From the NCBI GenBank assembly GCA_963762255.1, contig CAVXKA010000001.1, positions 640,001 to 704,000 of the forward strand: DNA of 64,000 bases. The letters are read 5' to 3'. Numbering within the stretch: position 1 is the stretch's first letter; the number at the start of each line of letters is the position of its first letter. Below the pieces are notes generated by a model. The model saw nothing but the letters and a program-made list of their open reading frames with translations. It was not told the DNA's origin and made no database searches. Shown here piece after piece: positions 39,264-60,167 of the stretch. The stretch is from Candidatus Eiseniibacteriota bacterium (lineage in GTDB: Bacteria > Eisenbacteria > RBG-16-71-46 > JABDJR01). A program made the translations under genes and the position numbers.

Positions 39264-39270
39264 CTTCTCA

Positions 39271-39490
39271 GTAGCGACACCTGGGGGGGGTAGGTTCGCT
39301 ACGTCACCCTGAAAACCACCCTGCGGGTGAGATAGGGGGCAACGGCGCCTCACGGGGTGCCGCGCTGCCCTACGACCTTGCGGCCGCACCCCATGTATCG
39401 GATCGGCTCTCCCCGACTTGATCGCTTTCGCCGCCGCGGAACCGGAGCGCGAGTTTTCACCCAACCCGCCCGGGTCGGGCCGCCTAACTG
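39271..39490 (-). ncRNA. Candidate structured ncRNA A (unknown family)
   Basis: Several stems with GCAA/GAAA/GUGA loops and G-U pairs that work only on the minus strand; terminator follows. Confidence 0.5.
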
Positions 39491-39528
39491 GCTGGTAGAC
39501 TTCACGTCCCCACCACGAGGAGGCCCGC

Positions 39529-41127
39529 GTGATCCCCGATTCCGAACACAAGTTCTTCGAGGCCGTCGAGCGGCGCATCGAGCACCTGGCGCGCCATCGC
39601 ATGGAGAACGAGTCGGCCCTCTACGCCGGCATGCCGCTCCCCTGGGATCCCGCGGACCTCTGCGCGCGCCAGGCCGGTGTGGTTCAAGAGGGGGACTTCC
39701 CGGCCCGTCTCGAAGCGGCCTTCGGCATGGACCCGACACCGGAAGAGCACCGTCACCTCGATCGGCTGCATCGCTGGGTGATCGCCACGCTCTTCGAGAC
39801 CCATCCCGATATCGCGCCCCTCGTGCAGGAGCTTCGCGAACGGCAGATCGCGTTCCGCCCGTGCGTGGGCGATCGCGAGGTCTCGCGGGCCGAGATCCGC
39901 CGCATGCTCCTCTCGGAGCCGGACCGAGGGCTTCGCGAGATGGCGTGGAGGTCCACGGTTCCCCTCGGTGAAGCGATCGAGGAGGATGCGACGGAACTCC
40001 TTCGGCGCCGCGAGGCGCTTGCGCGAGCGGTCGCCGGCTCGGGTTTTCCGGAGATTGCGTTCCACGTCATTGATCAGGATCGCGCCGAGGCCGTGGGGCT
40101 TGTCGATGCCGTCGAGCGATTCACCCGCGGAACGTACCAGGAGGCGAAGCGCGAGATCCGCGCCGTGCTTGGCCTTCAGGATGTGGAACCATGGGACGTG
40201 GACTACGGCCTCATGCGCCTGAGCCCGCTTCCTCCGGACGCGTTCGAGGCCGTGCCCACGTTGGATGCCGCGCGCGCGCAGGCGCACCGATGGGGGTTCG
40301 ACCTCGACGGCGCAGGCGTGCGCTGGGAAGCGTGCGATCTCCCCTTCGACGCGTTGGTTCTCCCGGTGGAGTCCCCCGGCGAGATCCGCATCCTGCACGC
40401 ACCATTTGTGGGATACGACGGTTTCGGCGCCGCGTTCAACGCTGCGGGCCGCGCGCTCGGCGGGGTGCGCGCCCGCTCGCACAGTCCTCTCCTCGATCGC
40501 GAGTCACCGGTCATGATCGAGGCGGCGGGGGCACTGTTCGAAGAAGTGACGCGCCAACCGGCCCGGCTCGCCGAGATCACCGGCGCTCCCCCCCCCGCCG
40601 TGCGCACGCACCTGCGCGCCGCCCGCTTCGCCCGGGTGATCGCGCTTCGCCGTCACGCGGCCGCCACCGCCTTCGAGAACCTTGCCTACGCCGCGTCCAG
40701 CCTGAAGCCGCAGCGACTCCACGCGAACGTCACGGAGCAGATGCTGGAGGAGACGCGCCGTCCGGAAGTGCTCTGGCCGGGCGATCCGTTCTGGGTGAGC
40801 CGGCCGCTGCACGGCGCTTCGATGATTCTCGGCGTGCTGATCGCTGCGCAGACATGGGAGCGATTGCAGGCTGAGATTCCCGAGGCGTGGGCCCGTGAGG
40901 AAGCCGGCACGTGGCTGCGCGAGCACCTCTTCGGGCCCGGAGCAAGCGAGGACTGGAGAACCAGGGTGGCGCGTGCCACCGGGGCCCCGCTCGGGATTGA
41001 CGCGTTCGCGAGGGAGATGGATCTCAGCGTGAAGAGCGCGGCGCTCGCCGACGTGGAGGAATTGTCGGACGCGGCGGTGGCCGAGTACTTCAAGGACATC
41101 GACCTCAGCGACATCGACAGGGACTGA
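39529..41127 (+). CDS. M2/M3 gluzincin-like protein lacking HEXXH
   Basis: EPDRGLREMAW, RREALARAV, VEPWDVDY and LFGPGASEDW..V..ATG peptidase-like motifs; GAGGAGG RBS. Confidence 0.7.
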   Translation: MIPDSEHKFFEAVERRIEHLARHRMENESALYAGMPLPWDPADLCARQAGVVQEGDFPARLEAAFGMDPTPEEHRHLDRLHRWVIATLFETHPDIAPLVQELRERQIAFRPCVGDREVSRAEIRRMLLSEPDRGLREMAWRSTVPLGEAIEEDATELLRRREALARAVAGSGFPEIAFHVIDQDRAEAVGLVDAVERFTRGTYQEAKREIRAVLGLQDVEPWDVDYGLMRLSPLPPDAFEAVPTLDAARAQAHRWGFDLDGAGVRWEACDLPFDALVLPVESPGEIRILHAPFVGYDGFGAAFNAAGRALGGVRARSHSPLLDRESPVMIEAAGALFEEVTRQPARLAEITGAPPPAVRTHLRAARFARVIALRRHAAATAFENLAYAASSLKPQRLHANVTEQMLEETRRPEVLWPGDPFWVSRPLHGASMILGVLIAAQTWERLQAEIPEAWAREEAGTWLREHLFGPGASEDWRTRVARATGAPLGIDAFAREMDLSVKSAALADVEELSDAAVAEYFKDIDLSDIDRD

Positions 41128-41205
41128 GCGACCCCGCGGACCCGCTGATCGCTGACTCCGATGCTACAATGGGGGACCACACCGCTGAAGAGGAGGTAGC
41201 ACCCG

Positions 41206-42354
41206 ATTTACGAGGTCAAGGCGCTCGAAGACCGCAAGGAGCGGGCCGTGCTGGTCGGCCTGGTCCCGTCCCCGACCGAAGAAGACTCCCTCGATGAGCT
41301 TTCTCTCCTCGCCCAGACCGCCGGCGCCGAGGTCGTCGACCGGCTCCGCCAACGCCGGGATTCCATCCGCGCCGGCACGTTCCTGAGCCGGGGCAAACTG
41401 GAACGGCTCAAGGAACTCGCGCGCGAAGCCGAGATCGATCTCGTCATCTTCGACGACGATCTCTCCCCCGGCCAGGTGAAGAACCTGGAGACTCAGCTCG
41501 AGTGCAAGGTGGTCGACCGCAGCGAGCTGATCCTCGCCATCTTCGCCGAGCGCGCCCACACGCGCGAGTCCCGCCTCCAAGTCGAGTTGGCACAGCTCGA
41601 GTACCTCCTCCCGCGGCTCACCCGAATGTGGGTCCACCTTTCGCGTCAACAGGGTGGCATAGGCACCCGAGGCCCCGGCGAAACCCAGCTCGAAGTCGAC
41701 CGCCGCCGGGTGCGCGAGAAGATCGCGTTTCTCAAGAAACGGCTCGAGGAGGTGGACCGCGAGCGGGAAGTGCAGCGCTCGCGCCGCCATCGCGTGCACC
41801 GCTGCGCGCTGGTGGGGTACACGAACGCGGGCAAGTCCACGCTCATGAACGCGCTCACCGGGGCCGGTGTGCTCACCGAGGACAAGCTCTTCGCCACCCT
41901 GGACGCCACCACCCGGCGCTACCGGTTTCCCGAAGGACAGGTGACGCTCTTCACCGACACCGTGGGGTTCATCAGGAAGCTCCCGCATCACCTGGTCGCC
42001 TCGTTTCGCTCCACCCTGCGCGAAGTCATCGAAGCCGATCTCTTGCTCCACGTCGTGGATGCATCCAACCCGGCCGCTGAAGAGCAGATTGAGACCGTGT
42101 ATCAGGTACTCGAGCAGATCGGGGCGGCAGGCAGGCCGACGATTCTTGCGCTGAACAAGGCGGATGTGGCCGACGAAGCCACCCTCCTTGGGCTGCGAGC
42201 CCGACACGCCAGGTCGGTTGTCTGTTCGGCCGTGCGGCGTGCGGGGCTCGATGATCTGCGGGCCCGGGTCCTCGAGGAAGTGATCCGTTCGGATGGCCGG
42301 CCGGCCACCGGTGAAGGGGCCCACAGCGATGCTTCCACAGAATCTCCCATGTAA
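41206..42354 (+). CDS. hflX: Ribosome-splitting GTPase HflX, probable ATT start
   Basis: GIGTRGPGETQLE, GYTNAGKS, LFATLD, DTVGFI and NKAD motifs. Confidence 0.95.
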   Translation: MYEVKALEDRKERAVLVGLVPSPTEEDSLDELSLLAQTAGAEVVDRLRQRRDSIRAGTFLSRGKLERLKELAREAEIDLVIFDDDLSPGQVKNLETQLECKVVDRSELILAIFAERAHTRESRLQVELAQLEYLLPRLTRMWVHLSRQQGGIGTRGPGETQLEVDRRRVREKIAFLKKRLEEVDREREVQRSRRHRVHRCALVGYTNAGKSTLMNALTGAGVLTEDKLFATLDATTRRYRFPEGQVTLFTDTVGFIRKLPHHLVASFRSTLREVIEADLLLHVVDASNPAAEEQIETVYQVLEQIGAAGRPTILALNKADVADEATLLGLRARHARSVVCSAVRRAGLDDLRARVLEEVIRSDGRPATGEGAHSDASTESPM

Positions 42355-42505
42355 CCGCTTTCCCTATAGACGCGAATTGCATTATACTGTCGAACGTTGA
42401 TTCCCCCAGACTGCCCCGTCGGGCCGACAAGCACCGGCCGGGGCGAGACGCCTTTGGTTTCTGTCCCCGCTACGGTCTGGACGACAGATAAGGGGCACTA
42501 GGGGA

Positions 42506-44251: not shown

Positions 44252-44264
44252 CCCTTGGATATAT

Positions 44265-44280
44265 TTGTAAAGATTTACAA
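44265..44280. promoter_or_regulatory. Perfect palindrome, candidate operator
   Basis: TTGTAAA-GA-TTTACAA. Confidence 0.5.
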
Positions 44281-44335
44281 CTCTTGCGTGTCCGTGATTC
44301 GAATCTGGGACTAGTCTGCTCTATCAGAAGACTCT

Positions 44336-44547
44336 CTCTGACCGGGTGCCGAACGATGGAGTCACGCGGGGCGGGGCGGAATCCTCCGCTTCACCCCAAG
44401 ACCTCCGGAGTTGCAGAGCGGCACGGTCCGGCCGGCGCGATAACTGGTCTTCGGGCGCGCGTTGGGCGCAGGAAACTGTTGCCTGGGGGAAACGGTGCCC
44501 GATCACCCTTCGATCCGCTTTTCCGGTCGACCGTGCCGCGTTTTCTT
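44336..44547 (+). ncRNA. Candidate structured ncRNA B (unknown family)
   Basis: 11-bp closing stem 44418-44428/44529-44539 followed by GTTTTCTT; inner stems including a UUCG loop. Confidence 0.5.
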
Positions 44548-44576
44548 GCCCGCACAGACGGAAGCGAACGGGACCC

Positions 44577-45251
44577 TTACCCCGGCTGCACCCCTCCGAG
44601 CACGCGAGCGTCCTCCTCACACCCTCCGCACCAGCGCACCATCTGCCGCGCCATGCGCCCCATCCCTTCCTCCATTTCGAGACGCGGGAAATCTCCGGGG
44701 GCGAAGATCACGGCGAGCGCTTCCGTGGTGCGCTCGCTCACGGAAGTGCGGGCGGAGTCGGAGGTGGGAGATCCGAAGGGGCCGTCATCATCGGCCACGG
44801 TGAGTCGCCCCGCCACGTGGACGGGCCCCTTGCGGATGCCCTCGTAGAACTCTCCGTCGCGCCCGACTCGCAGCACTACGTTGCCGCGCACCTGCGCGAG
44901 ATCGTAGAGCCCGATCGGCAGGAGCAGCGCGAGCGAGGACCAGTTGCAGGCGTCCACGAGCCGGTTGATGCGGTAGAGGGGTTCGCCCTTGAGCACGCGG
45001 CGGAGCAGCGCCTCCGACGACGGTCGCGCGCGGGTGGGGTCCACGCCGAAGGCTCGGTAGAGGCGCCGCGCGGGCTCGAGGCCGGGGATTTCGGAGGGAG
45101 CACGCCCCGCGAACGCGCGCCGGTACGTGACGCCAAGATCCTCGATCTCCGACCAGAACGAGTTCTCGTCGCCGACGCGAAGTCCGGACAGGCGCACGGC
45201 GCCGGCCAGGACACTCCGGGAAATCTCTTCATCGATCCGGAAGCTTGCCAT
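44577..45251 (-). CDS. Free-standing B3/4 (PheT editing-like) domain protein
   Basis: GVDPTRARPSSEALLRR, INRLVD and PIGLYD motifs. Confidence 0.88.
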   Translation of the reverse strand: MASFRIDEEISRSVLAGAVRLSGLRVGDENSFWSEIEDLGVTYRRAFAGRAPSEIPGLEPARRLYRAFGVDPTRARPSSEALLRRVLKGEPLYRINRLVDACNWSSLALLLPIGLYDLAQVRGNVVLRVGRDGEFYEGIRKGPVHVAGRLTVADDDGPFGSPTSDSARTSVSERTTEALAVIFAPGDFPRLEMEEGMGRMARQMVRWCGGCEEDARVLGGVQPG

Positions 45252-47317
45252 CACGGCTCTCCCACAGCGCGCGACGAAGGAAGGAAGCGGAACACGGTCG
45301 CCTCGGGGTTCCACCAGACGATCTCGAAGCGATCCGGCCGGCGGCCCATGAAGCTTGTGCCGGCGCGCGCGCTGCCGTGATCGCTGGTGCGCCACAACGC
45401 GTACAACGGCCCCACGTTTTCGGCGGCGAACGCATCGAGAGCGGCCAGTGTCGCCGTCGTGTCGACGGGGACGACGGGGGGGCGCGGATACCGCGAGTCC
45501 ACGTACACGCCCACGAGCGCGTCCCGCACGTCGCGACGGCGATTCATCTCCGCCGCCGGGTAGCCCCAGAAATGGGCGTAGGGCTCGCGTCCCCAGTACT
45601 GGCGGCGCGGCGCGAGCACGAGCACGTCGGCGCGCTCCTGCGAATCGATGAAGACCGCGTCGGGCGGCGTACGCTCGGCCATCCAGGCGTAGAGAGAACG
45701 CTCATCTAGGGAGATCGGGGCCGGAGCCTTCTGGAAGAGGTACACGGCGAGGTAGAGCGCCGACATGGGGACGCACATCGCAATGGGGATTGCCCACGCC
45801 CACATGCCATGGCCCCGGGCGCGGAGCGCTTTCCACCAACGCGCGAGCGTCCACCCCGCCGCGACGGCGGGGAAGAGGTAGAACACGAAGGGCATCTTGT
45901 CGGTGGTGTTGGTCGTGGGGAGCACGGTCCAGAGCGCCGCGATCATCATGCCCAAGGCCAGCCCCTGGAACACGCGGGCGCCCGGCCGCGCACCCAATCT
46001 CCAGAGCGCGGGACCGCCGAGGACGAGCGCCGCCGAGGATGCGATGAGGATTCCCGCCCACGCCGGCGACCACCCGATCGGGAAGGGGGCCCGGGTGCGG
46101 CCCACCGTGCTGAGGAAGATCGGCGCTGCCAACGCGCTGCCACACGCGAAAGCCATCGCGCCCATCACCACGAGACGCCGAGGCACCGCACCGGGACGAA
46201 CGAGCAGAAGGACCCCCGCAAGCAGCAACCCCAACCCACCGGCCCCGGCCAGTCCAGGATTCCATACCCACATGCCGAACGCAGCCAGAGCCACGCCCAC
46301 GAATCGGCGCGGGGACTCACCGGCGACTCGGGACGGCATCGACATGGACCGCGCCCAGCCCACGAGTCCCTCGCCGAGCCAGGCCAGAGACGTGACGGCG
46401 CCCCCGAACGCGGTCATCACCAGGTATTTGTTGAGAAAAGCAGGCGGGCTCCCGTAGAGAGACGTGAACGCCAGAACTTGATCAAAGGTGAACGGACGGA
46501 GCGAGAACAGACGGCGCAGTTCTCCCCAACCCGCGGTCTCCCCCACGAACGCGCGCGCAAGCTTCACACCGAATCCGAGGACGAAGAACGCATCGAGCCC
46601 GAGCGGCACGAAGAGAGCGGCGAAGAACGCCTCGCGGCCCGGCCGGCCCGCACCGCGCGAGAGCGCGTAGACCGCGCCGCCCAGCGAGACCAGCCAGAAC
46701 GTATTGAGGAGCCCGCCCAAGTCCCAGGCCGCCACACCCGCTGCCTCCGCCCACACCGCGAGCATCGCGTGATAGAACCAGACGTAGTTGAGAGAGAGCC
46801 CCGCGAAGTACGGATCGCCGGGAGGGACGCCGCGCGCTGCGATCTCGAAGACGACGGCGGTGTGGAACACCGCATCGCTGCGCATGCGTACCCAGGGACG
46901 AAGCGCATGCGGGAGGAGCGCGAGCGCAGCGAGAACGACGAGCCACACGATCAGCCGCCGCTCCCATCGCGGCATGGGGCCGCCGGGGCTGTGCCCGCGG
47001 AGCAGTGCTAGAAACCCGGCGGCATAGGCCGCGGCGAGACAGAGCTGCGCCGCGACGGAAACGGAGAGGCCTAGCGCGAGAAGCACGGTGGCGGCGGCCC
47101 CGGAAACGAGAGGACCGATGAAGAGCGCGCGTGCGATCACGAGCCAGCCGCGTGCGCCGCCGCCAAGCGCGCGGGAAACGGCGAATCCGGGAGCGAATCC
47201 GAGGCCCACCGCCGCGCCGAGCCAGCGCAACGGCACCGCGTCGAACGCAGCCCCGGCGATCCAGGCCGCCGCCCCGACCGCCAGAGGCGCGGCCCACGCC
47301 GTTCCGCGCCTCATCAC
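45251..47317 (-). CDS. Polytopic membrane protein, GT-C glycosyltransferase-like
   Basis: Many TM helices; DAVFH...PPGDPYFAG..LNYVWFYH; C-terminal W..ERTPPDAV. Confidence 0.6.
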   Translation of the reverse strand: MMRRGTAWAAPLAVGAAAWIAGAAFDAVPLRWLGAAVGLGFAPGFAVSRALGGGARGWLVIARALFIGPLVSGAAATVLLALGLSVSVAAQLCLAAAYAAGFLALLRGHSPGGPMPRWERRLIVWLVVLAALALLPHALRPWVRMRSDAVFHTAVVFEIAARGVPPGDPYFAGLSLNYVWFYHAMLAVWAEAAGVAAWDLGGLLNTFWLVSLGGAVYALSRGAGRPGREAFFAALFVPLGLDAFFVLGFGVKLARAFVGETAGWGELRRLFSLRPFTFDQVLAFTSLYGSPPAFLNKYLVMTAFGGAVTSLAWLGEGLVGWARSMSMPSRVAGESPRRFVGVALAAFGMWVWNPGLAGAGGLGLLLAGVLLLVRPGAVPRRLVVMGAMAFACGSALAAPIFLSTVGRTRAPFPIGWSPAWAGILIASSAALVLGGPALWRLGARPGARVFQGLALGMMIAALWTVLPTTNTTDKMPFVFYLFPAVAAGWTLARWWKALRARGHGMWAWAIPIAMCVPMSALYLAVYLFQKAPAPISLDERSLYAWMAERTPPDAVFIDSQERADVLVLAPRRQYWGREPYAHFWGYPAAEMNRRRDVRDALVGVYVDSRYPRPPVVPVDTTATLAALDAFAAENVGPLYALWRTSDHGSARAGTSFMGRRPDRFEIVWWNPEATVFRFLPSSRAVGEP

Positions 47318-47433
47318 GCCGCGTTCTTGGGGAGTACGCCGTTGACCTGCATAGGTGCCGCCAATACTATCGACTTGTCACGCGGCCTCCCAGGGCTTCT
47401 TTGCCCGGCCGGTCGCGGATGAGGGGACAATCC

Positions 47434-47901: not shown

Positions 47902-47945
47902 GCCTCACCCTTACCCCGCCGGGCGGACCGGCCTCGGGAGCTAGG

Positions 47946-48407: not shown

Positions 48408-48416
48408 GAGCGCGGG

Positions 48417-48758: not shown

Positions 48759-48764
48759 GGCACC

Positions 48765-49394
48765 ATGAACGACCGACATCACGACGCTCCTGAACACGGA
48801 CCTTCCTCCGGAGATGCCGCATCCAACCGCTTGAGCCGGTTCCTCGCTCTCGTGCTGCGCCATCGCGCCCATCAGTTCGATCTGGCTGTGGACGAGGAGG
48901 GCTTCGTCGCCTTGGATCCGCTCCTGGAAGTGATCCACTCGCAGTCCGGTCTCGATGGAGTCACCCGTGAGGACCTGGAACTTCTGACCCGCGAGGGAGA
49001 CCGCAAGCGCTACGAGATCCGGGGCGACTCCATGCGCGCCACCTACGGACACTCCTTCCGCCGCCCCATCCGCTATCCGGCGGTGGAGCCCCCCGAGCAC
49101 CTCTTCGTCGGCGTTGCCTCCGCACAGGTTCAGGAGGTTCGTCTGCACGGTCTTCGTCCGGAGGGGCGCCAGTACCTCCACCTCTCCGAGCGGGAGGATG
49201 AGGCTCGTGAGGTGGGAAGCCGGCGCAGCGGCGACGCCACCGTGGTTACGGTACTCGCCCTGGAAGCGTCCCAAAGTGGAATTCCATTCCACCGACCCAC
49301 TGACGGCCTCTATCTCGCTCTGCAACTCCCCGCGCGCTTCTTAGATTTGCAGGTGCAGTACGGCCGATCCCCGAAGAAAGGGCGCCGGCGCTAG
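48765..49394 (+). CDS. kptA: RNA 2'-phosphotransferase (Tpt1/KptA)
   Basis: LSRFL.LVLRH, RKRY, RATYGHS and YLHLS motifs. Confidence 0.88.
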   Translation: MNDRHHDAPEHGPSSGDAASNRLSRFLALVLRHRAHQFDLAVDEEGFVALDPLLEVIHSQSGLDGVTREDLELLTREGDRKRYEIRGDSMRATYGHSFRRPIRYPAVEPPEHLFVGVASAQVQEVRLHGLRPEGRQYLHLSEREDEAREVGSRRSGDATVVTVLALEASQSGIPFHRPTDGLYLALQLPARFLDLQVQYGRSPKKGRRR

Positions 49395-49539
49395 CCTCGC
49401 GTCCGCGGGCATGAACCTCGTTCCAGCCGGCGCCAGTCTCGCGTCCGCGGCCCTGGAATCGCCCCAATCGCTTTCTTGGATTTCCAGTTAACGTTTATTG
49501 AATTGGGACCGCGCGACCGCGATCGCCATACTCCCTGCG

Positions 49540-49840
49540 TTGTTGATGTGTGGGGTGGGGTGGGGTGAAACCCGGAGAGTAAACGTCTCCGGTCCCGGAC
49601 CTGACTCGCTGGGACGTACGCCAAATACGGTGGTAGCGGAAGCACTCGGCGTTCACGGAACGAACGGAGTGCGGTCCTCCGACTGGGGATGATGGGGGTT
49701 CGGCGCCCCGGCGAGGGTCCGGGTCTTTCGAAAGGAACGCTGGCCGCTTTCAGCAATCTCCCGAACAGCGCCCTCGGGTAGCCTCGGGAGGACCTTCGCC
49801 GGGCTTAGGCGAGGAAGCGCCGCGTTCCTTTCTGTTTTTT
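49540..49840 (+). ncRNA. Candidate structured ncRNA C with cloverleaf-like domain (unknown family)
   Basis: Hairpin 49574-49592; stem 49594-49610/49710-49723 enclosing four arms; 11-bp stem 49730-49740/49822-49832 followed by TGTTTTTT. Confidence 0.55.
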
Positions 49841-49984
49841 CAGCCCGATTCCCCTCCATCGCGCGGCCGGATGACTCATTGTCGATTTTGTAGTCTTTTG
49901 ATCAGCATTACGCCGCCGCTTCGTCTTGAACCAAATTATCTGAATATTGGAATTGAGTTAGCGGGATATTGGATTGGTGTGCCC

Positions 49985-50190
49985 CTGCCCGCCGGATCAT
50001 CATGCGGTCGGGTCGAGGAGAGACAGCCACGATCCCTGCGAGCCCTACGCCGGACTGACAGAGCGGACGCAGGAGTTCGGGACGCTCAGGAGCGAAGGCT
50101 CCTGAAAACGGGATGCATGGGGGTACCGTTCCGAACGGGATGCCGAGGAGATCTCGACGACCGGTCGGCCGCAAGGCCAAGGGCTCGCAA
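49985..50190 (+). ncRNA. Candidate structured ncRNA D (unknown family)
   Basis: 10-bp stem 50037-50046/50180-50189 enclosing GAAG and GCAA hairpins; own terminator. Confidence 0.5.
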
Positions 50191-50197
50191 AATCTTT

Positions 50198-50231
50198 GGG
50201 CTCCTCAGGAAACTGAGGAGCCCTTCTTTTT
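50198..50231 (+). terminator. Intrinsic terminator
   Basis: GGGCTCCTCAG-GAAA-CTGAGGAGCCC-TTCTTTTT. Confidence 0.9.
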
Positions 50232-50232
50232 G

Positions 50233-51177: not shown

Positions 51178-51302
51178 GGCGATCGCTCCTTGCCCAGATT
51201 CTTGGACCGCTCCACCTGATTATCGGTCAGGGAGCTGGGGGGCGCAATCGGAGGAAGGGAAAGGGGCCTACCGGGGCACGACTGGATGCAAGCGCCCCCG
51301 GG

Positions 51303-52640
51303 TTACCAGCGATCCAGCAGGTCGAGCACACCTTCCTGACGCAGCAGGGCCATCCCCAAGCGCTGCGTGGAGACGCCTTCGCGCAGAACGAAGTCGAACG
51401 CTGGATTCCCGCCGTCCATCCTGGCAGCGAAGTGAAGCAGGCGGACGCGCGAATCGCCTTCGATCTCGGGAGCCAGCTCCGCGATATGCGAGGCGACCAA
51501 GACCAACGCGTTCGGATGTGCAGCCAAGCGCTTGACCAGAGCGAGGCTTGCTTCAGTCGCATCGTGGACATTGGTTCCGCGGAAGGGCTCGTCGATCACC
51601 GCCACGACTGACTCCAAGCCACCGAGCAGCGTGGCCAGTGCCCTGATGCGGCGAACTTCAGCGAGGTAGAAACTCTCCCCCGCAGCGATGCTGTCCGAGA
51701 TCTGGACACTGGAGAAGAGAGATCGGACCGGTTGAAAGGTCATCGCTATGGCCGGCACCCCACACCCCAGGTGGGCGAGATACGTCGAGAGCGCGAAGGC
51801 CTTCAGGAACGTGGACTTCCCGGCCATGTTCGGCCCGGTCAGAAAGCAAACACGGGTTACTCGATCGAGCGTGATGTCATTGGGGATGCCTCGTTGCCCA
51901 AGGAACGGGTGGGCCAGGCCACGCACGGAGCAAGCACCAGTCGACACAATGGGATACGACCACCCGTGCTCGCGGGTCGCAGCCCCCAGGCTCCACATGG
52001 CCTCAAGCTCGGCGAGTTGCCTGAGAAGATGTTCGAGTAGCGGCTTTCCCGGCCCCCGCGCAACCTGATCAAAAGCCAGAATCGCTGACGCCGTTGACCG
52101 CTCCGGACCGGGGTTCCGCAGGCGCGCGAGGGTGGGAGATTCCGTCGTGGCACGGATCTCGCGTGCATTCGCTCGCACCAACTCGGATGGCGCAGCACCC
52201 AGGAGATCCACGAGCCGTGCCGCCGCGGTGAGCAGCGCGACAACCCGATCACGCCCCCGCTCGGCGTCCCGGAGGAATCGATTCTCGCGCATTCCCATCC
52301 AGACGGCCTCGGCGGCGCGCGCGACACGGGATCGCGACCTGGCAGGCTCCCAGCGGGATCCCAAATACGCACTGACGGCATCGAGTTCGGCGTCGTTCAA
52401 CGCGGCACGAACGGCGTCCGATTCCCCGGCAAGAGTCTGATGCGCAATCTGGAGTTCCACGATCCGTGCGGGGCCCGACACCGGGGTGGAGATGCGCCGA
52501 CGAAGCGACTCCTTGCCAATCCAACTGCGGGTGCGGTCAAGGAGGGCAAAGAGTGTCATCCCCTCGGCGTCGAAACTCGAGAAAACCTCCAGATCTCGCA
52601 ACGTGGAGCTGTCAACGGCCATCACTTCTGCGTTTGTCAC
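51303..52640 (-). CDS. Short MutS-family (domain V) ATPase
   Basis: LTGPNMAGKST, GESFYLAEV, DEPFRGTN and ASH motifs. Confidence 0.88.
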   Translation of the reverse strand: MTNAEVMAVDSSTLRDLEVFSSFDAEGMTLFALLDRTRSWIGKESLRRRISTPVSGPARIVELQIAHQTLAGESDAVRAALNDAELDAVSAYLGSRWEPARSRSRVARAAEAVWMGMRENRFLRDAERGRDRVVALLTAAARLVDLLGAAPSELVRANAREIRATTESPTLARLRNPGPERSTASAILAFDQVARGPGKPLLEHLLRQLAELEAMWSLGAATREHGWSYPIVSTGACSVRGLAHPFLGQRGIPNDITLDRVTRVCFLTGPNMAGKSTFLKAFALSTYLAHLGCGVPAIAMTFQPVRSLFSSVQISDSIAAGESFYLAEVRRIRALATLLGGLESVVAVIDEPFRGTNVHDATEASLALVKRLAAHPNALVLVASHIAELAPEIEGDSRVRLLHFAARMDGGNPAFDFVLREGVSTQRLGMALLRQEGVLDLLDRW

Positions 52641-52650
52641 ATCTTCCCTG

Positions 52651-53835
52651 TCAAGGCTCTTCAACCAGAACACCCCCCAGTGCCGCCAGAAACGCCTCGA
52701 TGTCCGCGCGGTCGATGGTGAGGGCCGGGTCGATCCGCAGCACACTCACGCCGGGGCGGCGACAGGTGATGAAGCCTCGGTGGACCAGCTCGCGGTGCAC
52801 GCGGGTCGTGAACTCGCAGTCGGGGTCATCCACGAGTTCAACCGCCAGCATGAGGCCGCGGGCGCGGATCTCTCGGATGCGCTTCGTGCGCGTCTGGATC
52901 TGCTGGAGTCCGGCCAGAAGGTCCGCTGCGATCTCCCGTCCGCGCTCGATGAGCCCCTCGTCGCGGATGACGGCCAGGACTTCGCGTGCGACCGCCGCGC
53001 CGAGTGGATCGTTCTGGTGTGACTGCCCGTACTTGACCGGCCGGTCTCCAAGCTTCTCCACGACACGCCGGCCAAAGGCGGCCGCGCTGACGGGGTAGCC
53101 GTTGCCGATGCCCTTCCCCGTCGCGACGACGTCCGGCGAGATGCCGTAGTGCTGGTAGCCGAACCAGGCGCCGGTACGCCCGACGCCGGTGGTGACCTCG
53201 TTGACGAGCACGAACCCGCCGTTCTGCTGCACGGTGCGTGCGAGGTTGCTCACCAACGGCTCGGGAGGAAACCGTACGAGACCGGAGGAGCTGCCGGGCT
53301 CGAACAGGAATCCGCCGATCCGATCGAAGGGGATCGCCGCCCAGCGCTCGCAGTGCTCGTCGCACCCGCGCAAGGGCGGGCAGTTCGGGCAGCCCATCCA
53401 GTCGAAGCAATACCACTCGTCCCCGCGCTTGGTGCTGGCCGAGCCATAGGCGCCGAAATAGGAGTCGGTCATGGTCAAGAGGAGCGGTCGCTCGGTCAGC
53501 AACTGCGCCACGCGGACGCCGTACTCGACCGCCTCGCTCCCCGAGCAGAGGAACACGCACTTGCCGCCGTCGAAGCCGAACAGGGAGAGGACCTCGCGCG
53601 CCGCTTCTTCGACGACTGCGCTCGTGTACCCGAACCCGGTGTGTGCGATGCGGGCCGGCTGCTCCGCGAGCACGCGGAGCATGCGAGGGTGCGCGTGGCC
53701 GATCGAGGTGCACCACACGCCGGACTCCAGGTCGACGTAGCGTTTGCCATTGGAGTCGAAGAGGCTGCAGTTCTCGGCCCGAACTATGTCCTCGAGGATC
53801 AGTTCGTGGCCGGGATACCAGAGGAGCCGACTCAC
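52651..53835 (-). CDS. Class III PLP aminotransferase
   Basis: SGSEAVE, EP, NEVTTGVGRTG (N in place of the usual D) and GKGIGNG motifs. Confidence 0.88.
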   Translation of the reverse strand: MSRLLWYPGHELILEDIVRAENCSLFDSNGKRYVDLESGVWCTSIGHAHPRMLRVLAEQPARIAHTGFGYTSAVVEEAAREVLSLFGFDGGKCVFLCSGSEAVEYGVRVAQLLTERPLLLTMTDSYFGAYGSASTKRGDEWYCFDWMGCPNCPPLRGCDEHCERWAAIPFDRIGGFLFEPGSSSGLVRFPPEPLVSNLARTVQQNGGFVLVNEVTTGVGRTGAWFGYQHYGISPDVVATGKGIGNGYPVSAAAFGRRVVEKLGDRPVKYGQSHQNDPLGAAVAREVLAVIRDEGLIERGREIAADLLAGLQQIQTRTKRIREIRARGLMLAVELVDDPDCEFTTRVHRELVHRGFITCRRPGVSVLRIDPALTIDRADIEAFLAALGGVLVEEP

Positions 53836-54392: not shown

Positions 54393-54469
54393 GGGCACCT
54401 CCTTGTCGGTGTACCGGTCAACGGGATGGGGTAGGGGTCATTGGCGGGGCAGTATACCGCGAAGAAGGA

Positions 54470-55408
54470 TCAGGGATTGGCCGGCCCGCGGGACTGCCAG
54501 GGGCCTCCGGGGGGCCAGGTTCCTGTGACTCCCCTGCCGGTCCGCAGATCTTCCAGGACTGGCAGGAGAAGAGGGCGAATCACTTCGAGCAGATCATTCT
54601 CGGGGCTGCTTCCCACGGAAAGGTGGGCGCGACGCGCGAAGGCGCGGAGCTGGGGCGCGCGCGAGGGGTTCCGCCAATAGTCCTCGGTGAGGCCGAACGG
54701 CGCTTGCTCGGGGATCGGTGTGGCTCGTCGTCCGAGAGTGCGGCGAATCGCCTCCACCAGCGTCACCCTGTCGAATGAGAAGTGGCCTGCCAGGTAGTGC
54801 AGGTCGAAGTAGTCCTTGATGCGGCTGTTGCGGTCCCCAAGAACGATCATTGCCTCGAGCTTCTCCGCGATCACGGCTTCGGGCGGATAGGCAAGCACAC
54901 TGGGGGCAGGAAAGCCCAGGAGGGTGGGATAGTCGCGTCGTTCCGGGGCGGGCCAAACGGCGTCGCCAACACCGATGTCGACCTGCATCGGAATCCGCGC
55001 TCTTTCGCAGGTAGCCACCATGATCACCCGGGTGCCCGCGAAATCTTCTTCCGGTCGAATGGGTTCCAGTCGAATCGTCCCGGTCTCGAATACCAATCCG
55101 TCGGGATCCACCGGCACCCTCAAGACAACCTCTAGTTCTCCACGGACCGCCTCGACCGAACTTGGGCCTTGCCTCAGGAGGTCAAGGTCTCTCGTCGCAC
55201 GGTAGGGGCGCTCCGCCCAGAGTCGCAGCAGCGTAGCCCCCTTCAGGACGAAGCGGTCGCGGGAAGGCGAGATCCCAAGCCGGTATAGAAACCGCTCCTG
55301 CGCGAACGCTGAGAGAAGCACCTGGTAGTCTTCTCCCGTCCGGCGGGATAGCTCTAGCAGGCGAGCCAGCACCGACGCCGCGAGATTGCGCTTGTCGGGC
55401 AGGCTCAC
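54470..55408 (-). CDS. abiEii: AbiEii nucleotidyltransferase toxin (type IV TA)
   Basis: FVLKGATLL...RATRDLD, EKLEA and NSRIKDYFD motifs. Confidence 0.9.
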   Translation of the reverse strand: MSLPDKRNLAASVLARLLELSRRTGEDYQVLLSAFAQERFLYRLGISPSRDRFVLKGATLLRLWAERPYRATRDLDLLRQGPSSVEAVRGELEVVLRVPVDPDGLVFETGTIRLEPIRPEEDFAGTRVIMVATCERARIPMQVDIGVGDAVWPAPERRDYPTLLGFPAPSVLAYPPEAVIAEKLEAMIVLGDRNSRIKDYFDLHYLAGHFSFDRVTLVEAIRRTLGRRATPIPEQAPFGLTEDYWRNPSRAPQLRAFARRAHLSVGSSPENDLLEVIRPLLLPVLEDLRTGRGVTGTWPPGGPWQSRGPANP

Positions 55409-56010
55409 GTTATCGCGTCCAGGTAGGGTTGCATGATCCTCCGCACGCGGCAGACTTGCGCGAAGTGTGCAAGGTCGCCGGCCTTTCCCCGATGGTCCCG
55501 CGTGAAGTCCTTGAGGGCTTCGATGGCAACATCCACGCCAACCTTGTTGCGGTGCTTGAAGCAGTCGGCAACCGTCTTGGCCGGGGAGTAGACCCGTACC
55601 GTCACCCCTTCGATGAGGTGCGTCTCGATGCCTTCGGTCAGAGCGGCGCCGGAGAAGCGGACGACTCGGAGCTGGGGATAATCGAGCTGGGGGCGCCGCG
55701 CCTTGTCCGGCAGGGCAATCCAGACCTGCCACGGCAGTTGCGTGGTGAGATCGTGAAACCGAAGCGCTGTGAGCAGGCAAATCACCGCGTCGGGCACTCG
55801 CTTGGCAACAAGCACCAGCCCATGGTTCTCGGTGAGCGGATGATCGGAAACCACGTAGAGTCCCCGTCCCTGCCGCTCCAGAAGGCCCTTGTCCGCCAGT
55901 CGATAGAGATGCGCCCGGGAGATCCCGTGGGTCTTCAGATCCCGGGGGCGGACGACGCCAAGTCGGCGGACGAGCGCGAGAAGTCGACGATCGAAGGGTG
56001 TGATGGCCAT
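55405..56010 (-). CDS. abiEi: AbiEi antitoxin/transcription regulator
   Basis: N-terminal wHTH (GRGLY), CLLTALRFH and KTVADCFK.RNKVG motifs. Confidence 0.9.
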   Translation of the reverse strand: MAITPFDRRLLALVRRLGVVRPRDLKTHGISRAHLYRLADKGLLERQGRGLYVVSDHPLTENHGLVLVAKRVPDAVICLLTALRFHDLTTQLPWQVWIALPDKARRPQLDYPQLRVVRFSGAALTEGIETHLIEGVTVRVYSPAKTVADCFKHRNKVGVDVAIEALKDFTRDHRGKAGDLAHFAQVCRVRRIMQPYLDAIT

Positions 56011-56022
56011 GGACCGGATGAT

Positions 56023-56043
56023 ACATAACGTAGGTGGTTATGT
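56023..56043. promoter_or_regulatory. Inverted repeat in the abiE promoter
   Basis: ACATAAC-N7-GTTATGT between minus-strand TTGCAC and TATCAT. Confidence 0.6.
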
Positions 56044-56110
56044 GCAACTACCAACGTTTTGATACATCAACACCCGGTTACGCTACCGCAAACCACTGTA
56101 AACAAATAAG

Positions 56111-57313
56111 TTAAGCGGTTGGCGCGGCCAACAAGAGAGTGCGTAATGCCGCCAGCAGCGCGTCCACGTCGCCGGCGGTGTTGTAGCCTTGGATGGAGAC
56201 GCGGATGTAGGGGCGGCCGTTCCATGTGAGGCACGGGATCTCGACGCGGTGCTCCTCGATCAGGCGCGATTGGAAGGCGGCGACATCGCCCACGGGGGGA
56301 AGCGGCGCCGCGGCCATCTGGTGGTAGAAGCGGGGCGCGTCCTGGTCGTCCGCTGATACGCCAGCGTCGGCCGGATAGATGGGCGGGAGGCCGGTGATCT
56401 CGGAGATACCCGCAACCGCTCGGCGCACGAGCGCGTGACAGCCTTGGCGCACCGCGTCCCAATCGTGCTCGCGCTGGAACGCGATGGCGGCAGGCACCGA
56501 GAGGTAGGCGGACTGATCGATGGTGCCCGGCCATTGCAGGTTGTCGAGGAACCGCGAGCCGCTGTCGAACGGGTTGTTGTCGCCGATGCCCCAGCTCACG
56601 ACCGAGGGCACGAGATCCGCTTGCAGGTCGCGCCGCGTATAGAGGAACCCCGCGCTCTTGGGTGCACAGAGCCACTTGTGGCAGTTGCCTGTGTAGTAGT
56701 CGGCCTGGAGTGCGGTCAGGTCGAGCGGGATCTGCCCGGGGCCGTGCGCGCCGTCGATCATGGTGAGAATGCCCGCCTCGCGGGCGCGCCGGCAGAGGGC
56801 CTCGACAGGAAGCCTCAAAGCGGTCGGCGACGTGATGTGGCTCGCGAAGATGAGCTTTGTGCTCGCCGTGACGCCGGACCAGATCGTTTCGAGCATCGCG
56901 TCCTGCGTCGTAGCCGGGAGCGGGATTACCTTGCGGACGACGGCCGCCTTCGCGCGGCACGCCACCAGGTTCAACACGTTGTCGCAAGCGCCGTATTCGT
57001 GATCGGTGGTGAGGATCTCGTCACCCGGTTGGAGCCGCATCGAGCGCGCCACGATGTTCACGGCGGCGGTGGCATTCGGAACGAACGCGAGATCATCGGC
57101 GGGGGCGTTGACGTATGCGCCCAGCGCCTCGCGCGCGATGCGAAGTTCGTTCATCAGTTCGCGCTGGAAGAACCGGACGGGCTGACGTTCGAGGCGACGC
57201 TGCCACTCCTGATAGACCTCGAAGACCGGTCGCGGGGTCGCGCCGAACGAGCCGTGGTTGAGGAAGACGACGTCGGGGTCGAGGAGGAAGAGATCTCGAA
57301 GGTTCTCGTGCAT
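56111..57313 (-). CDS. Class V PLP enzyme (isopenicillin N epimerase/C-S lyase-like)
   Basis: LNHGSFG, DGAH and GNCHKWLCAPK motifs. Confidence 0.88.
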   Translation of the reverse strand: MHENLRDLFLLDPDVVFLNHGSFGATPRPVFEVYQEWQRRLERQPVRFFQRELMNELRIAREALGAYVNAPADDLAFVPNATAAVNIVARSMRLQPGDEILTTDHEYGACDNVLNLVACRAKAAVVRKVIPLPATTQDAMLETIWSGVTASTKLIFASHITSPTALRLPVEALCRRAREAGILTMIDGAHGPGQIPLDLTALQADYYTGNCHKWLCAPKSAGFLYTRRDLQADLVPSVVSWGIGDNNPFDSGSRFLDNLQWPGTIDQSAYLSVPAAIAFQREHDWDAVRQGCHALVRRAVAGISEITGLPPIYPADAGVSADDQDAPRFYHQMAAAPLPPVGDVAAFQSRLIEEHRVEIPCLTWNGRPYIRVSIQGYNTAGDVDALLAALRTLLLAAPTA

Positions 57314-57320
57314 GCTCCCC

Positions 57321-58142
57321 TCAGTGCTCGTGGGGATTGGCCACCGGGGCCGGCACCGGCGCTCTTGAATAGACGAAAATGTACATGGCGGGCCGATCGG
57401 AGAGATTCCGGATCGCGTGCCGCATCGCGGGCGGGATGTGGGTCATCTCTCCGGGGCGCAGGTCCACCTGCCCGTAATCGGAGCGGATCACGGTCACGGT
57501 TCCCTCCAGACAGAAGATCAACTCGCGGGTCTTTCCCGTCGAATGGGTCTCCGTGCTGTCGCCCGGTGCCAGGATCTTGCGACCGGTGCCGAAGCCCTCG
57601 GCCTCGAACTCCACGTTGGCGAGATCGAGCCGGTCGGTCTGGGCTAGGGGAATATCGAGCGCCGGCGGCGGCGTTCCCTTCTCATCGGTGAGGCTGACCG
57701 CGCGGGCGGTGATACGTTGGATGAGCGAGAACTCAGGAACCGGCTTGCCGGCCCTGAATGAGTGGCCTTGCCAGTGGGCGAGGCGCGCGGCCGGGTACAC
57801 CTTGCGGTAGAACATTCCCTCGACGACGGCGTGCGCACCGGCGCAGTCCGTGGGAAAGAGGTGGATCAACTCGGGGAAGTTCACCACCACGCCTTCGCCG
57901 CCTTCCTCCGGGACAACCTCGATGAAGCACCCCTCGTTGGTGCACACCGAGGCCACGATCCCCTCGATCCGCACTTGCCGGTTGAAGTGGAGTTCTGGAT
58001 GCGCGATCAGATCGCCGATGGCAGTAGAGTCCGAGAGCGCGAACTCCTCACCAAGGTGTGTGTACGACGTGTCGGCCTGCGCGCCGTCGTGCAAGGCGGC
58101 GAGTGCCGCCGACACGAACACCACGAACCTCACGAGCCGCAT
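57321..58142 (-). CDS. Secreted DUF4920-like OB domain fused to a cupin domain
   Basis: Signal peptide; VRIEG.V.SVC...GCF; C-terminal LRPGE..HIPPAMRHAIRN. Confidence 0.65.
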   Translation of the reverse strand: MRLVRFVVFVSAALAALHDGAQADTSYTHLGEEFALSDSTAIGDLIAHPELHFNRQVRIEGIVASVCTNEGCFIEVVPEEGGEGVVVNFPELIHLFPTDCAGAHAVVEGMFYRKVYPAARLAHWQGHSFRAGKPVPEFSLIQRITARAVSLTDEKGTPPPALDIPLAQTDRLDLANVEFEAEGFGTGRKILAPGDSTETHSTGKTRELIFCLEGTVTVIRSDYGQVDLRPGEMTHIPPAMRHAIRNLSDRPAMYIFVYSRAPVPAPVANPHEH

Positions 58143-58228
58143 GTTGCCCCTCCATCTCCGGGCCTTCGCGAAATCCACCTCGGCATCGAAGGCAAAGAAG
58201 AGCGGCGCGCAGATGGACGGGATCCTGG

Positions 58229-59503
58229 TCAGGTGACTGAGGGCGGCGAGCCGGTCCTTGATGGACCCTCCCGCGGGCTTTCATCCACCAACTCCACCCC
58301 CCCCAACTCCCTCTTCACCCCCTCCACCGCCTTCAGCTCCTTGAGCTTCTCCCCCGCCGGTACAACGCGCTTTTCGAACGACCCCACCGCGCTGTTATAC
58401 GCGTCCACCGCCGTCCCCAGCCCGCGCCCCACCTTCCCCAGATGCTCCGCGAACACCGCGGTGCGTTCATACAACTCCCGCGCCGCGGACGCGATGTGCT
58501 CCGCGTTCTCCGCCAGCGCGCGCTGCTGCCAGTAGATGGCCACCGTTCGCAACAGCGCGACCAGCGTCGTGGGCGTAGCCAGCAACACCTTGGATCGCAG
58601 CGCCTCGACCTGTAGATCGGGCGAACGCGAGAAGGCAGCAGACAGGAACGGATCCCCGGGCAGGAACAGCACCACCAGGTCCACGTCTCCCTTGAGTTCG
58701 CGCGCGTACTCGCGCCCGGCCAGCGCCTTAACATGCGCCTTGAGCGCAGCGACGTGGCGGTCCAGCGCCGCACCGCGCGCCGCCTCGTCCGTTGCCTCCG
58801 CCGCTTCCAGGTATGCGCTCAAAGGCACCTTGGAGTCGACCGCGATGAACCGCCCGCCCGGCAGCCGCACCGTCATGTCAGGCCGCCCGCCGGAGGACAC
58901 CGTCTCCTGCTCCTCGAAGTCGCAGTGCTCGGTCATGCCGGCGAGCTCTGCGACATTCCTCAACGCGATCTCCCCCCATCGCCCACGCACCTGCGAGCCG
59001 CGTAGCGCCGTGGCCAAAGAAGTTGTCTGCGTCTGCAACGTTGACGTCAGCTCGGAGAGCCCTTTGACCTGCTGCATCAAGGTCGCGTAGGCACCCTCGC
59101 GCTTGGTCTCCAACTCCCCCGTCCGCGTCTCGAGCTTGCCCAGCGTCTCGCGCAAGGGCTTGAGCATCTCTTCGATCGCCGTCCGCCGCGCATCCAGATC
59201 CGCGGTCGCCTCGGAGCGCGCCTGCCCCAACCGCGTCGCCGCCAGTTCGAGGAACTGCTTCGTGGTCCCGTCCAGCGCCTGCGCCGCCAGCGCCTTGAAC
59301 GCATTCTCGAGATCGCGCCGCGATGCCTCGACGAATCCCTGTTGATCCGCCAACACCTTCTGCGCGTTCTCGAGCTGCGAGCGCGTCACCGCTTCGCGCG
59401 ACATCGCGGTGGCCTCGCGCGAGCGCGCCCAGAAGTACGTGATGAGAAAGGCCAGCAGGGCGCCGGCCGCAAAGACGGCGAAGAGGACGGGGAGTCCGTT
59501 CAT
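58229..59503 (-). CDS. rmuC: DNA recombination protein RmuC
   Basis: RGRWGE, RPD..V.LP...VDSK, FLPGD and TPTTL motifs. Confidence 0.92.
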   Translation of the reverse strand: MNGLPVLFAVFAAGALLAFLITYFWARSREATAMSREAVTRSQLENAQKVLADQQGFVEASRRDLENAFKALAAQALDGTTKQFLELAATRLGQARSEATADLDARRTAIEEMLKPLRETLGKLETRTGELETKREGAYATLMQQVKGLSELTSTLQTQTTSLATALRGSQVRGRWGEIALRNVAELAGMTEHCDFEEQETVSSGGRPDMTVRLPGGRFIAVDSKVPLSAYLEAAEATDEAARGAALDRHVAALKAHVKALAGREYARELKGDVDLVVLFLPGDPFLSAAFSRSPDLQVEALRSKVLLATPTTLVALLRTVAIYWQQRALAENAEHIASAARELYERTAVFAEHLGKVGRGLGTAVDAYNSAVGSFEKRVVPAGEKLKELKAVEGVKRELGGVELVDESPREGPSRTGSPPSVT

Positions 59504-59894
59504 GGTCTGGTTGCTGCCTTCTTTGGGGCTGAGGTCCGCGCAAGGCGGGGAGAGCGGCCGCCCGCCGCAGTTTACGCGTTTGCGCTCCCCCGACAATGGG
59601 CAATTGGCCGTCGGTTCCGGCGCCTTGTCCGGGCCGGTGCTGCCGGCCTGGCCGGCTCGAAACGCCCCCACCCGGCCTCTTCTGCGACCCGCGGCATTTT
59701 AACAAAAATTTCATTGACTCATGTGGAAAAACGAGGGAATGTGGCGCATGAACAGCAGTGGGCAATGGTTACGATTGGAATCGTAACCGTCTCAAAAATG
59801 AGACATTAGGGGCTAGACCCTGTTTGCGACAGTCGTACAGTGATATATTGCTGATAGCAAACGAAGCGACCCGGATTTGCCTATGCTGACGCTG

Positions 59895-60140
59895 AGGAGA
59901 CAAGAAACTCCAGGGAAGACCGAACCCGCGCCGGTGGAACCCGGGTTCCTCGGCGCGGCGCTCGGCGGGGGCCCGACCCGCGAAAGGGGTCGGGCGTCCG
60001 GCAAGGACTGAGTAGAGCGTAGACGAGTCAGTTGGGTAGGCCGCACCGGGGGGAGTGTGTCGGGATTGCAGGGTAGCCTGCAGTCCTGGGGGAACGCACC
60101 TCCCCCCGGTGACGGACTCCAGCGCGTCGCCGGGCGTGCC
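59895..60140 (+). ncRNA. Candidate structured ncRNA E (unknown family)
   Basis: Stems 59926-34/59950-58, 59959-67/60128-36, 59971-79/59987-95, 60044-55/60100-11 (12 bp) and 60062-72/60077-87; AT-rich promoter-like region upstream. Confidence 0.55.
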
Positions 60141-60167
60141 GCCGGATCGCAAGGCCTCGAACCGCGC

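Follow-up and report, generated by a model that had tools for sequence, protein, structure and literature searches.

Homologous small RNAs (sRNAs) that occur in pairs under one regulator include GlmY/GlmZ, OmrA/OmrB and PrrF1/PrrF2. A different kind of sRNA is 6C RNA (RF01066; 6C/B11 of Mycobacterium tuberculosis), a short, chaperone-independent RNA of a high-GC bacterium with a C-run loop before its terminator hairpin; it is reported to bind its mRNA targets via C-rich loops (PMC6486639). A further group, the orphan structured motifs that comparative genomics has brought to light, includes raiA, OLE and ROOL (PMC10861870, PMC11109978). These are intergenic RNAs with covarying helices, GNRA loops and conserved junctions. 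Here we describe five structured intergenic elements, designated A to E, in a 64,000-nt stretch of DNA from a Candidatus Eiseniibacteriota bacterium (assembly GCA_963762255.1, contig CAVXKA010000001.1, positions 640,001 to 704,000), referred to below as the window.

A first-pass annotation, made from the letters of the window, had described these elements as an undescribed repertoire or family of stand-alone noncoding RNAs (ncRNAs), perhaps linked to RNA repair or translation quality control. Our analysis leads to a different arrangement. We consider it likely that A, B, C and D are four independent, lineage-restricted ncRNA genes that do not form one family, and that E is no such gene. The description as undescribed stand-alone ncRNAs thus stands for A, C and D, whose conservation extends past the genus and whose helices covary, and for B within the genus; it fails for E. 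These are new RNA families of a familiar kind, and we found nothing on them in Rfam 15 or in the literature searched. Nothing joining Eisenbacteria with ncRNA was found in that search, in which the literature on Eisenbacteria and sRNA consisted of work on CsrA. Candidatus Eisenbacteria has no cultured member. These loci are the first concrete regulatory-RNA candidates for the phylum: a family-wide sRNA with a C-rich loop, and two complex RNAs in tandem that share a private promoter box.

The tandem pair, C and D, resembles GlmY/GlmZ-type pairs in that two related RNA genes lie side by side, with a separate terminator for each and one distinctive promoter/operator repeated in front of both. C and D are not similar to GlmY/GlmZ, OmrA/OmrB or PrrF1/PrrF2 in sequence or by Rfam; they are also larger than these and multi-helical, and D has a nearly invariant core of about 110 nt. 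Their intergenic location, covarying helices, GNRA loops, conserved junctions and orphan function recall raiA, OLE and ROOL; C and D differ in being smaller than OLE and ROOL and in having a much narrower range, D occurring in five and C in six of the eight genomes of a single family. RNA A shares with 6C its small size, high-GC host, apparent chaperone independence and C-run loop ahead of the terminator hairpin. It has double the length of 6C and two additional hairpins at the 5′ end, and belongs to Eisenbacteria, not Actinobacteria; it has one C-rich loop, in the third hairpin, compared with two 6C hairpins of at least six C each, and its terminator loop is not C-rich in relatives. The 6C model scored A at 30.7 bits (E-value 0.13; gathering score 47), and the A homologues L074, L075 and L080 gave no 6C match at E-values up to 1. 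With a sub-threshold score, a single C loop and homologues that do not match, A was ruled out as a member of the 6C family.

Five structured elements in noncoding, single-copy gaps

The source genome (G000; 4.1 Mb in three contigs, 66% GC, 93.6% complete), in which the window is C1:640001-704000, was compared with the rest of its family (8 genomes, G000-G007). G001 is a sister species in the same genus, and G004-G007 make up a second genus, g4. Class-wide model searches covered 151 genomes, 8 in the family and 143 outside it, and related strains were compared as DNA contigs from four sequencing runs, including X2, X3 and X4. A gene map of the 37.7-62 kb region was drawn from open reading frame (ORF) lists, codon-position GC, and Pfam and NCBIfam matches; the coordinates of all features are given in Table 1.

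All five candidates fall in four noncoding gaps of this map, in agreement with the earlier claim that they lack a credible ORF, and codon-position GC bias was absent in each gap. Every gap matched itself alone in the 4.1-Mb genome; in the absence of dispersed copies, a REP/MITE-type repeat or a mobile element was ruled out for all five. Folding z-scores, computed against 150 dinucleotide shuffles, were -3.04 for A (minus strand), -4.28 for the core of B, -2.11 for C, -2.93 for D and -6.16 for E (all plus strand). Thus each candidate folded better than shuffled sequence, a control that the first-pass annotation had itself proposed. By comparison, 26 random 180-nt coding windows from the same region had a mean z-score of 0.00 (standard deviation 0.88, minimum -2.01).

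No known family had been recognized among the candidates, and an Rfam search gave no match at gathering score across the whole window. In E-value mode the four gaps produced seven matches at E-values up to 10, the best being the sub-threshold 6C match on A; apart from that match, these gaps and six homologous loci gave only chance matches to miRNA and sRNA families. A search for tRNA and tmRNA genes found none in the gaps. Because the folding, coding, copy-number and Rfam tests agree, the structured, ORF-free and orphan part of the original observation holds.

The gene map also bears out the statement that none of the five elements points into a downstream coding sequence (CDS) on the same strand. 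With the downstream genes convergent in this genome and no same-strand CDS, a riboswitch or cis-acting leader was ruled out for all five. As described previously, A to D end in a terminator or U tract; A and D have intrinsic terminators, and in B and C a closing helix is followed by a U tract. Of the multibranch domains closed by long-range stems that had been drawn throughout, the closing stems were recovered in B, C and D; A is a row of hairpins and not such a domain. Collection of homologues, part of a second check put forward at the outset, yielded compensatory changes in the folds of each of A to D.

C and D, a tandem pair with a private promoter-like box

Over positions 49997-50198, D is 79-83% identical by BLAST in the four g4 genomes, compared with 67-77% for the flanking CDS. 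Conservation is concentrated in the core: the seven sequences compared, six of them distinct and drawn from two genera, agree at 98 of 111 positions; five of the 13 variable positions fall in one apical loop. A model-based alignment gave ten helices with 97% of cells paired, and 9 of 62 pairs had changed on both sides. These double changes are located in P1, in the long-range helix P2 and in P3; none of 500 shuffles reached this result, and slid controls gave at most one. The inner helices of D never vary and are therefore predicted only. Indels on both sides of the core shift the reading frames between genera while the core letters remain unchanged, one nucleotide is inserted at 50051 in three strain contigs, and the 162-aa ORF that spans D has no Pfam match, indicating that D is noncoding.

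The D model (R1) matched 5 of the 151 class genomes, all in one family: the source genome and all four g4 genomes. D was not found by this model in G001, G002 or G003, which are 75%, 88% and 100% complete, respectively. A pattern scan of metagenomes recovered two contigs only, which differ very little from the g4 type. In the g4 genomes a U tract comes straight after the 3′ strand of P2, without the separate terminator found in this genome. Downstream of D lies a convergent gene in G005-G007, and no ORF was called there in G004 or in the two metagenome contigs.

RNA C was missed by BLAST in g4 and was revealed there by aligning the spacers between Tpt1 and D. It was found in G004-G007 and in both metagenome contigs, and in the sister species it is 86% identical up to the end of the G001 contig. 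The fold derived from seven sequences contains 56 pairs, 19 of which have changes on both sides. Its P2 is a 9-bp long-range helix with compensatory changes at four positions, and the closing helix of the 3′ domain has 12 bp. A model of the 5′ domain of C (R3) matched 6 of the 8 family genomes and gave no convincing match among the 143 other class genomes. Extra R3 matches of 23-27 bits (G005:C16, G007:C29, G084 and G098) lie inside coding regions with a strong signal in GC at third codon positions (GC3) and were discarded as false positives. Both C and D therefore present themselves as stand-alone sRNA genes, with a terminator or U tract on the RNA strand, compensatory changes and no same-strand CDS downstream.

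The two RNAs are preceded by copies of a 30-nt box which, searched as a strict pattern, has exactly two sites in the 4.1-Mb genome, ahead of C and ahead of D. Across the C/D loci the box pattern gave 14 matches, 13 of which (seven at C, six at D) are in one register; the fourteenth, a recurrence of the pattern inside a D promoter, was dropped. A TTGG -35 element is formed by the last letters of the box, and a -10-like hexamer, xATAxT (A at position 2, T at position 6), lies 20 nt past the box, which corresponds to an 18-nt spacer counted from a 6-nt -35 hexamer. This arrangement would place the start site of C some 30 nt ahead of its P1 and that of D at its first helix. The 5′ ends are also alike, each consisting of a hairpin with a GAGA(C/A)A loop, one base, and then the 5′ strand of P2.

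Model searches point in the same direction. R3, built from C only, matched D over its full length at 37.3 bits in G006 (whole-genome E-value 2.5e-6) and at 20.4-25.2 bits in four further g4-type loci. Conversely, the best non-D match of R1 was C in four of four loci (13.6-19 bits). Judged by their sequences, which share the box and match each other's models reciprocally, C and D are tandem paralogues. In G004 the C-D pair lies 10.4 kb from Tpt1 and is still tandem, so the conserved unit is C-D and not Tpt1-C-D. As the conserved upstream box is unique to these two genes in the genome, C and D are probably co-regulated by one dedicated factor.

At 49392-49435, a 42-nt stretch after the Tpt1 stop codon forms one copy of a short direct repeat, and this stretch is absent from the X3 and X4 contigs. 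G006 carries the Tpt1-C-D locus twice, on contigs C1 and C6 (L061 and L064), with identical scores; the assembly has probably duplicated a locus that is single in the genome.

RNA A, a family-wide candidate sRNA with an invariant C-rich loop

A search of 30 relatives by BLAST showed that positions 39229-39435 are 71-86% identical in five family genomes, compared with 64-74% for the adjacent peptidase CDS. The consensus fold from six genomes has 44 pairs, eight of them with changes on both sides. Read on the minus strand, A starts with two hairpins whose loops are of GNRA type. A conserved stretch without pairing follows, then a hairpin whose invariant loop has seven or eight C, and last a terminator. 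The strand is indicated by folding (z-score of -3.04 on the minus and -1.43 on the plus strand) and by the U tract after the last hairpin, which in all eight family genomes is on the minus strand. Two boxes that are invariant columns in the six-genome alignment appear promoter-like on the minus strand. With a terminator on the RNA strand, no same-strand CDS downstream and compensatory changes, A also has the properties of a stand-alone sRNA gene.

The covariance model of A (R2) matched eight of eight family genomes. In G002 and G003, the most distant members of the family, A is recognizable only as the C-loop hairpin and terminator. Matches of R2 outside the family were mostly terminator matches and were not counted as A. 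The exact pattern of the C-loop hairpin occurred in 6 records among 185,579 species genomes; four are labelled Candidatus Eisenbacteria, and the other two, labelled uncultured bacterium, agree in length with contigs of G001 and G005.

An M3-like peptidase gene lies 139-300 nt from A on the opposite strand in six of nine loci, with protein identity down to 37%. The exceptions are G006, where the two are 2.4 kb apart, G003, which has no such gene within 1.5 kb, and G005, where the contig ends short. The catalase gene beside A in this genome is not a conserved neighbour.

RNA B is supported at genus level and E is a variable spacer

The only relative of B is in the sister species, with 73% identity by BLAST. 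None of the 39 pairs in the two-species fold is broken, and of the five in which both partners have changed, four belong to the closing helix; the GNRA- and UNCG-type loops also keep their types. Searches with blastn and nhmmer at five same-family loci, three other-family loci and two G001 loci found nothing outside G001, with no relative at the syntenic position in g4, and the 95 nt upstream of B (44320-44413) are not kept in G001. There, B stays beside the regulator gene, and the B3_4 gene is on another contig, with 234 nt past its stop codon that do not contain B. We conclude that, within the genus, B is a genuine structured element.

By contrast, E is the variable sequence that separates rmuC from the YbaK-fusion gene, and it contains a single conserved hairpin. 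This 63-nt hairpin has z-scores of -6.19 on the plus and -5.12 on the minus strand and shows compensatory changes in the sister species, and a scan of 59500-60400 for terminators and promoters found none for E. A motif shared by D and E had been taken as a link between them. It is present, and only at those two sites in the genome, but 151 of 300 shuffles reach the D-E local alignment score, which equals the mean of the shuffles, and so the similarity is at chance level. The segment that carries it in E is replaced by 6 letters in a related strain from run X2 and by 36 letters in one from run X3, and the sister species lacks about 190 nt at E, the motif included. With R1, E scored 6.2 bits (E-value 1.3), and R3 gave no match at E at E-values up to 1. 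E was thus ruled out as a third C/D paralogue by its chance-level alignment, noise-level model scores, lack of a promoter box and strain-variable motif.

Between rmuC and E, the sister species has nearly the same letters in an AT-rich block with TTGACT (59698-59735), probably a promoter region for one strand or the other.

Alternative explanations

Our interpretation of A to D as four separate ncRNA genes draws directly on conservation, covariation, terminators, single copy number, the lack of coding signal and the relationship between C and D. Several points weigh against it. The strands, ends, start sites and expression of A to D are read from terminators and conserved boxes, and none of the 24 listed sequencing runs is on record as RNA; parts of the region are present in 20 DNA runs. 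The relatives are all metagenome-assembled genomes of one family, and the covariation counts come from five to seven related sequences in which events are not independent. The inner helices of D are model predictions, as they are invariant across relatives. The boxes ahead of A are unlike the C/D promoter. R3 scores D at only 9.7 bits in G000 and 8.2 bits in G004, and its 20-25-bit matches on D are not decisive alone because the false matches in coding regions reach 23-27 bits. The U tract of B is not kept in G001, and B could be a 3′ untranslated region (UTR) element. In addition, we infer, and do not observe, that C and D bind a protein or other macromolecule.

It is unlikely that the elements are cis-acting parts of neighbouring mRNAs, with A a leader or regulatory region of the peptidase gene, B the 3′ UTR of the regulator gene, and C (with D) the 3′ UTR of the Tpt1 operon. 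Such an arrangement would fit the position of A, which is kept by the peptidase gene even at 37% protein identity, the persistence of B beside the regulator gene in the sister species together with the failure to recognize a clear promoter for B, and the lack of a terminator between Tpt1 and C. However, the terminator of A and its lower folding energy are on the strand opposite the peptidase gene, a conserved promoter-like unit precedes C and another precedes D, the two have moved as a pair from Tpt1 in G004, and a same-strand CDS follows none of the elements. That the gaps represent conserved DNA sites, small-protein genes or remnants of repeats or mobile elements, and not RNAs, is scarcely credible. 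Frames do open by chance in GC-rich genomes, and several are open across D. Yet the gaps are single-copy and lack the codon-position GC signal, the frames shift between genera around invariant letters, three strain contigs have the insertion at 50051, the ORF across D is without a Pfam match, and the helices have accumulated compensatory changes.

That all five elements constitute one undescribed repertoire or family, functionally connected with RNA repair or translation quality control, is very improbable. In its favour, four real ncRNA genes do lie inside 21 kb, and the neighbours named in the first-pass annotation, a B3_4 domain protein, a YbaK/tRNA_edit domain protein and Tpt1, were identified correctly; C follows Tpt1 directly in five of six genomes, and a 16-base gapped motif is limited to D and E. 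Only C and D are related to each other, however, since A, B and E give noise with both the D and the C models, and the likeness of D and E is at chance level and in a strain-variable segment. A GGCC-GCAA-GG hairpin reported in both A and D does exist, and 2 of 300 shuffles reach its score (uncorrected, with ten pairs tested), but relatives of A do not keep the loop. The functional link fared no better: the sister species does not keep the convergence of B on B3_4, E is not conserved, and the C-D pair is 10.4 kb from Tpt1 in G004. The conserved neighbour of A is the M3-like peptidase gene, which is not an RNA-handling gene. Moreover, adjacency is expected by descent alone, because the whole region is syntenic among close relatives. 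The tempting tie to RNA repair and tRNA proofreading genes is accordingly removed as unsupported, leaving four separate ncRNA genes as the explanation that we prefer.

Proposed functions

By analogy with actinobacterial 6C RNA, A most likely works as a base-pairing regulator through its C-rich loop. Transcribed divergently from the M3-like peptidase gene, it would bind G-rich, Shine-Dalgarno-like sites in mRNAs without Hfq, which was not found in the genome. Of 2362 runs of at least six G, 37 sit 2-15 nt ahead of a plausible start codon; these form a list of possible targets and not evidence. B would be a genus-level structured RNA located 3′ of the Trans_reg_C/TPR regulator gene.

In our model of the tandem pair, C and D would each be driven by their own copy of a sigma-70-type promoter (TTGG -35, 18-nt spacer, xATAxT -10). 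Each transcript would then fold into a 5′ hairpin and, directly after it, a multi-helix domain held shut by a long-range helix, and the two would act in trans as co-regulated RNAs, most likely by binding a conserved macromolecule. A simple antisense seed would account less well for the near-invariant core of D than would a role in trans as the binding partner of a conserved macromolecule, such as a protein. A more elaborate version is speculative and, taken as a whole, doubtful: C and D might represent a new class of co-regulated, highly structured trans-acting RNAs restricted to Eisenbacteria, in which the D core is a binding pocket or active site (D being a ribozyme, a sensor of some ligand or the scaffold for its own ribonucleoprotein, not an antisense regulator) and the box is the operator of a regulator devoted to the pair. 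The conservation of D, with 98 of 111 core positions retained while genes differ by about 25-30%, makes structure probing worthwhile. Practical value is modest, given the narrow distribution and the uncultured host.

Known classes of stand-alone RNA were also compared with the pair. Like the protein-sequestering RNAs CsrB/RsmZ and 6S, D stands alone, and its sequence contains several GGA/AGGAG elements and two GGGAUGC copies; unlike 6S, it is not rod-shaped. CsrA (PF02599) gave no match in the 93.6%-complete genome in a search whose controls responded, and a CsrB/Rsm-type sponge was ruled out for D in the absence of this partner. Some Eisenbacteria are reported to have CsrA homologues of low predicted function (PMC13443453). 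RNase P, SRP, tmRNA and two 6S RNAs score above their family cut-offs elsewhere in the genome and none does in the window; C and D were ruled out as divergent members of these families on that basis. The two 6S matches are at G000:C2:243811-243989 (87.3 bits) and G000:C1:103435-103588 (49.6 bits).

Gene map and further observations

Table 1. Elements, gaps and genes of the region, in positions of the window
Feature	Position	Strand	Remarks
Catalase		+	5′ neighbour of gap A
Gap A	39190-39528		Noncoding by ORF lists, codon-position GC and Pfam
RNA A	39390 to 39232 (approx.)	-	Candidate sRNA of ~155-165 nt; four hairpins: SL1, SL2, C-loop hairpin, terminator
A intrinsic terminator	39267-39237	-	13-pair stem; U tract on minus strand only
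A C-loop hairpin	39271-39302	-	Invariant apical loop, 7-8 C; proposed seed
A promoter-like boxes	39395-39421	-	Two conserved boxes; variable spacer of fixed length
M3-like peptidase		+	Between gap A and HflX; weak Pfam match
HflX		+	After M3-like peptidase
Trans_reg_C/TPR regulator		+	Just before gap B
Gap B	44252-44576		Noncoding by ORF lists, codon-position GC and Pfam
RNA B	44418-44547	+	~130 nt; closed by 17-bp helix (44418-44428 with 44529-44539); U tract 44540-44547
B3_4 protein		-	Just after gap B
688-aa ORF	45251-47317	-	No family; after B3_4 protein
ORF without family match, PtsN-like, P-II-like, Tpt1		+	In this order, ahead of gap C/D
Gap C/D	49395-50232		838 nt; noncoding by ORF lists, codon-position GC and Pfam
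C promoter (putative)	49477-49506; 49527-49532	+	Box with -35-like TTGG; -10-like hexamer
RNA C	about 49540-49841	+	~300 nt
C P1	49572-49592	+	Hairpin
C P2	49594-49601 with 49716-49723	+	Long-range helix
C 3′ domain	49730-49740 with 49822-49832	+	Closing helix, then U tract
D promoter (putative)	49948-49977; 49998-50003	+	Second box copy; -10-like hexamer
RNA D	50008-50192	+	~185-nt multi-helix RNA
D P1	from 50011	+	Hairpin
D P2	50038-50045 with 50181-50188	+	Long-range helix
D core	50050-50160	+	Nearly invariant
D GNRA hairpin	near 50166-50177	+	
D intrinsic terminator	50198-50232	+	Stem 50198-50223, 11 pairs; separate element in this genome
SQS_PSY, MutS-like, aminotransferase, AbiE module, aminotransferase, cupin, RmuC		-	All between gap C/D and gap E
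Gap E	59672-60167		496 nt; noncoding by ORF lists, codon-position GC and Pfam
E strain-variable segment	59967-60038	+	Carries D-like motif (60005-60025); not a conserved RNA element
E conserved piece	60047-60109	+	63-nt hairpin; G-U pairs favour plus strand; no terminator tail
630-aa protein ending in YbaK/tRNA_edit domain	60168-62060	-	Past gap E

The 688-aa ORF has a strong coding signal (GC3 0.82) and no Pfam or NCBIfam match; the sister species matches its C-terminal 242 residues with 70% identity. In the 630-aa protein the YbaK/tRNA_edit match is limited to the last ~130 residues (Pfam 501-617), with NCBIfam far below cut-off, and the N-terminal ~480 residues have no family match.

Strain variation was also seen among the genes between gaps C/D and E. 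The AbiEii toxin-antitoxin module at 54464-56178 (Pfam AbiEii) is absent from contigs of three related strains, which have 31 other letters in its place, and it looks like a strain-specific inserted island. The 480-aa MutS-like gene at 51240-52677, which has MutS_III and MutS_V domains only, is skipped in one X4 strain contig, where 66 letters lie between its flanks.

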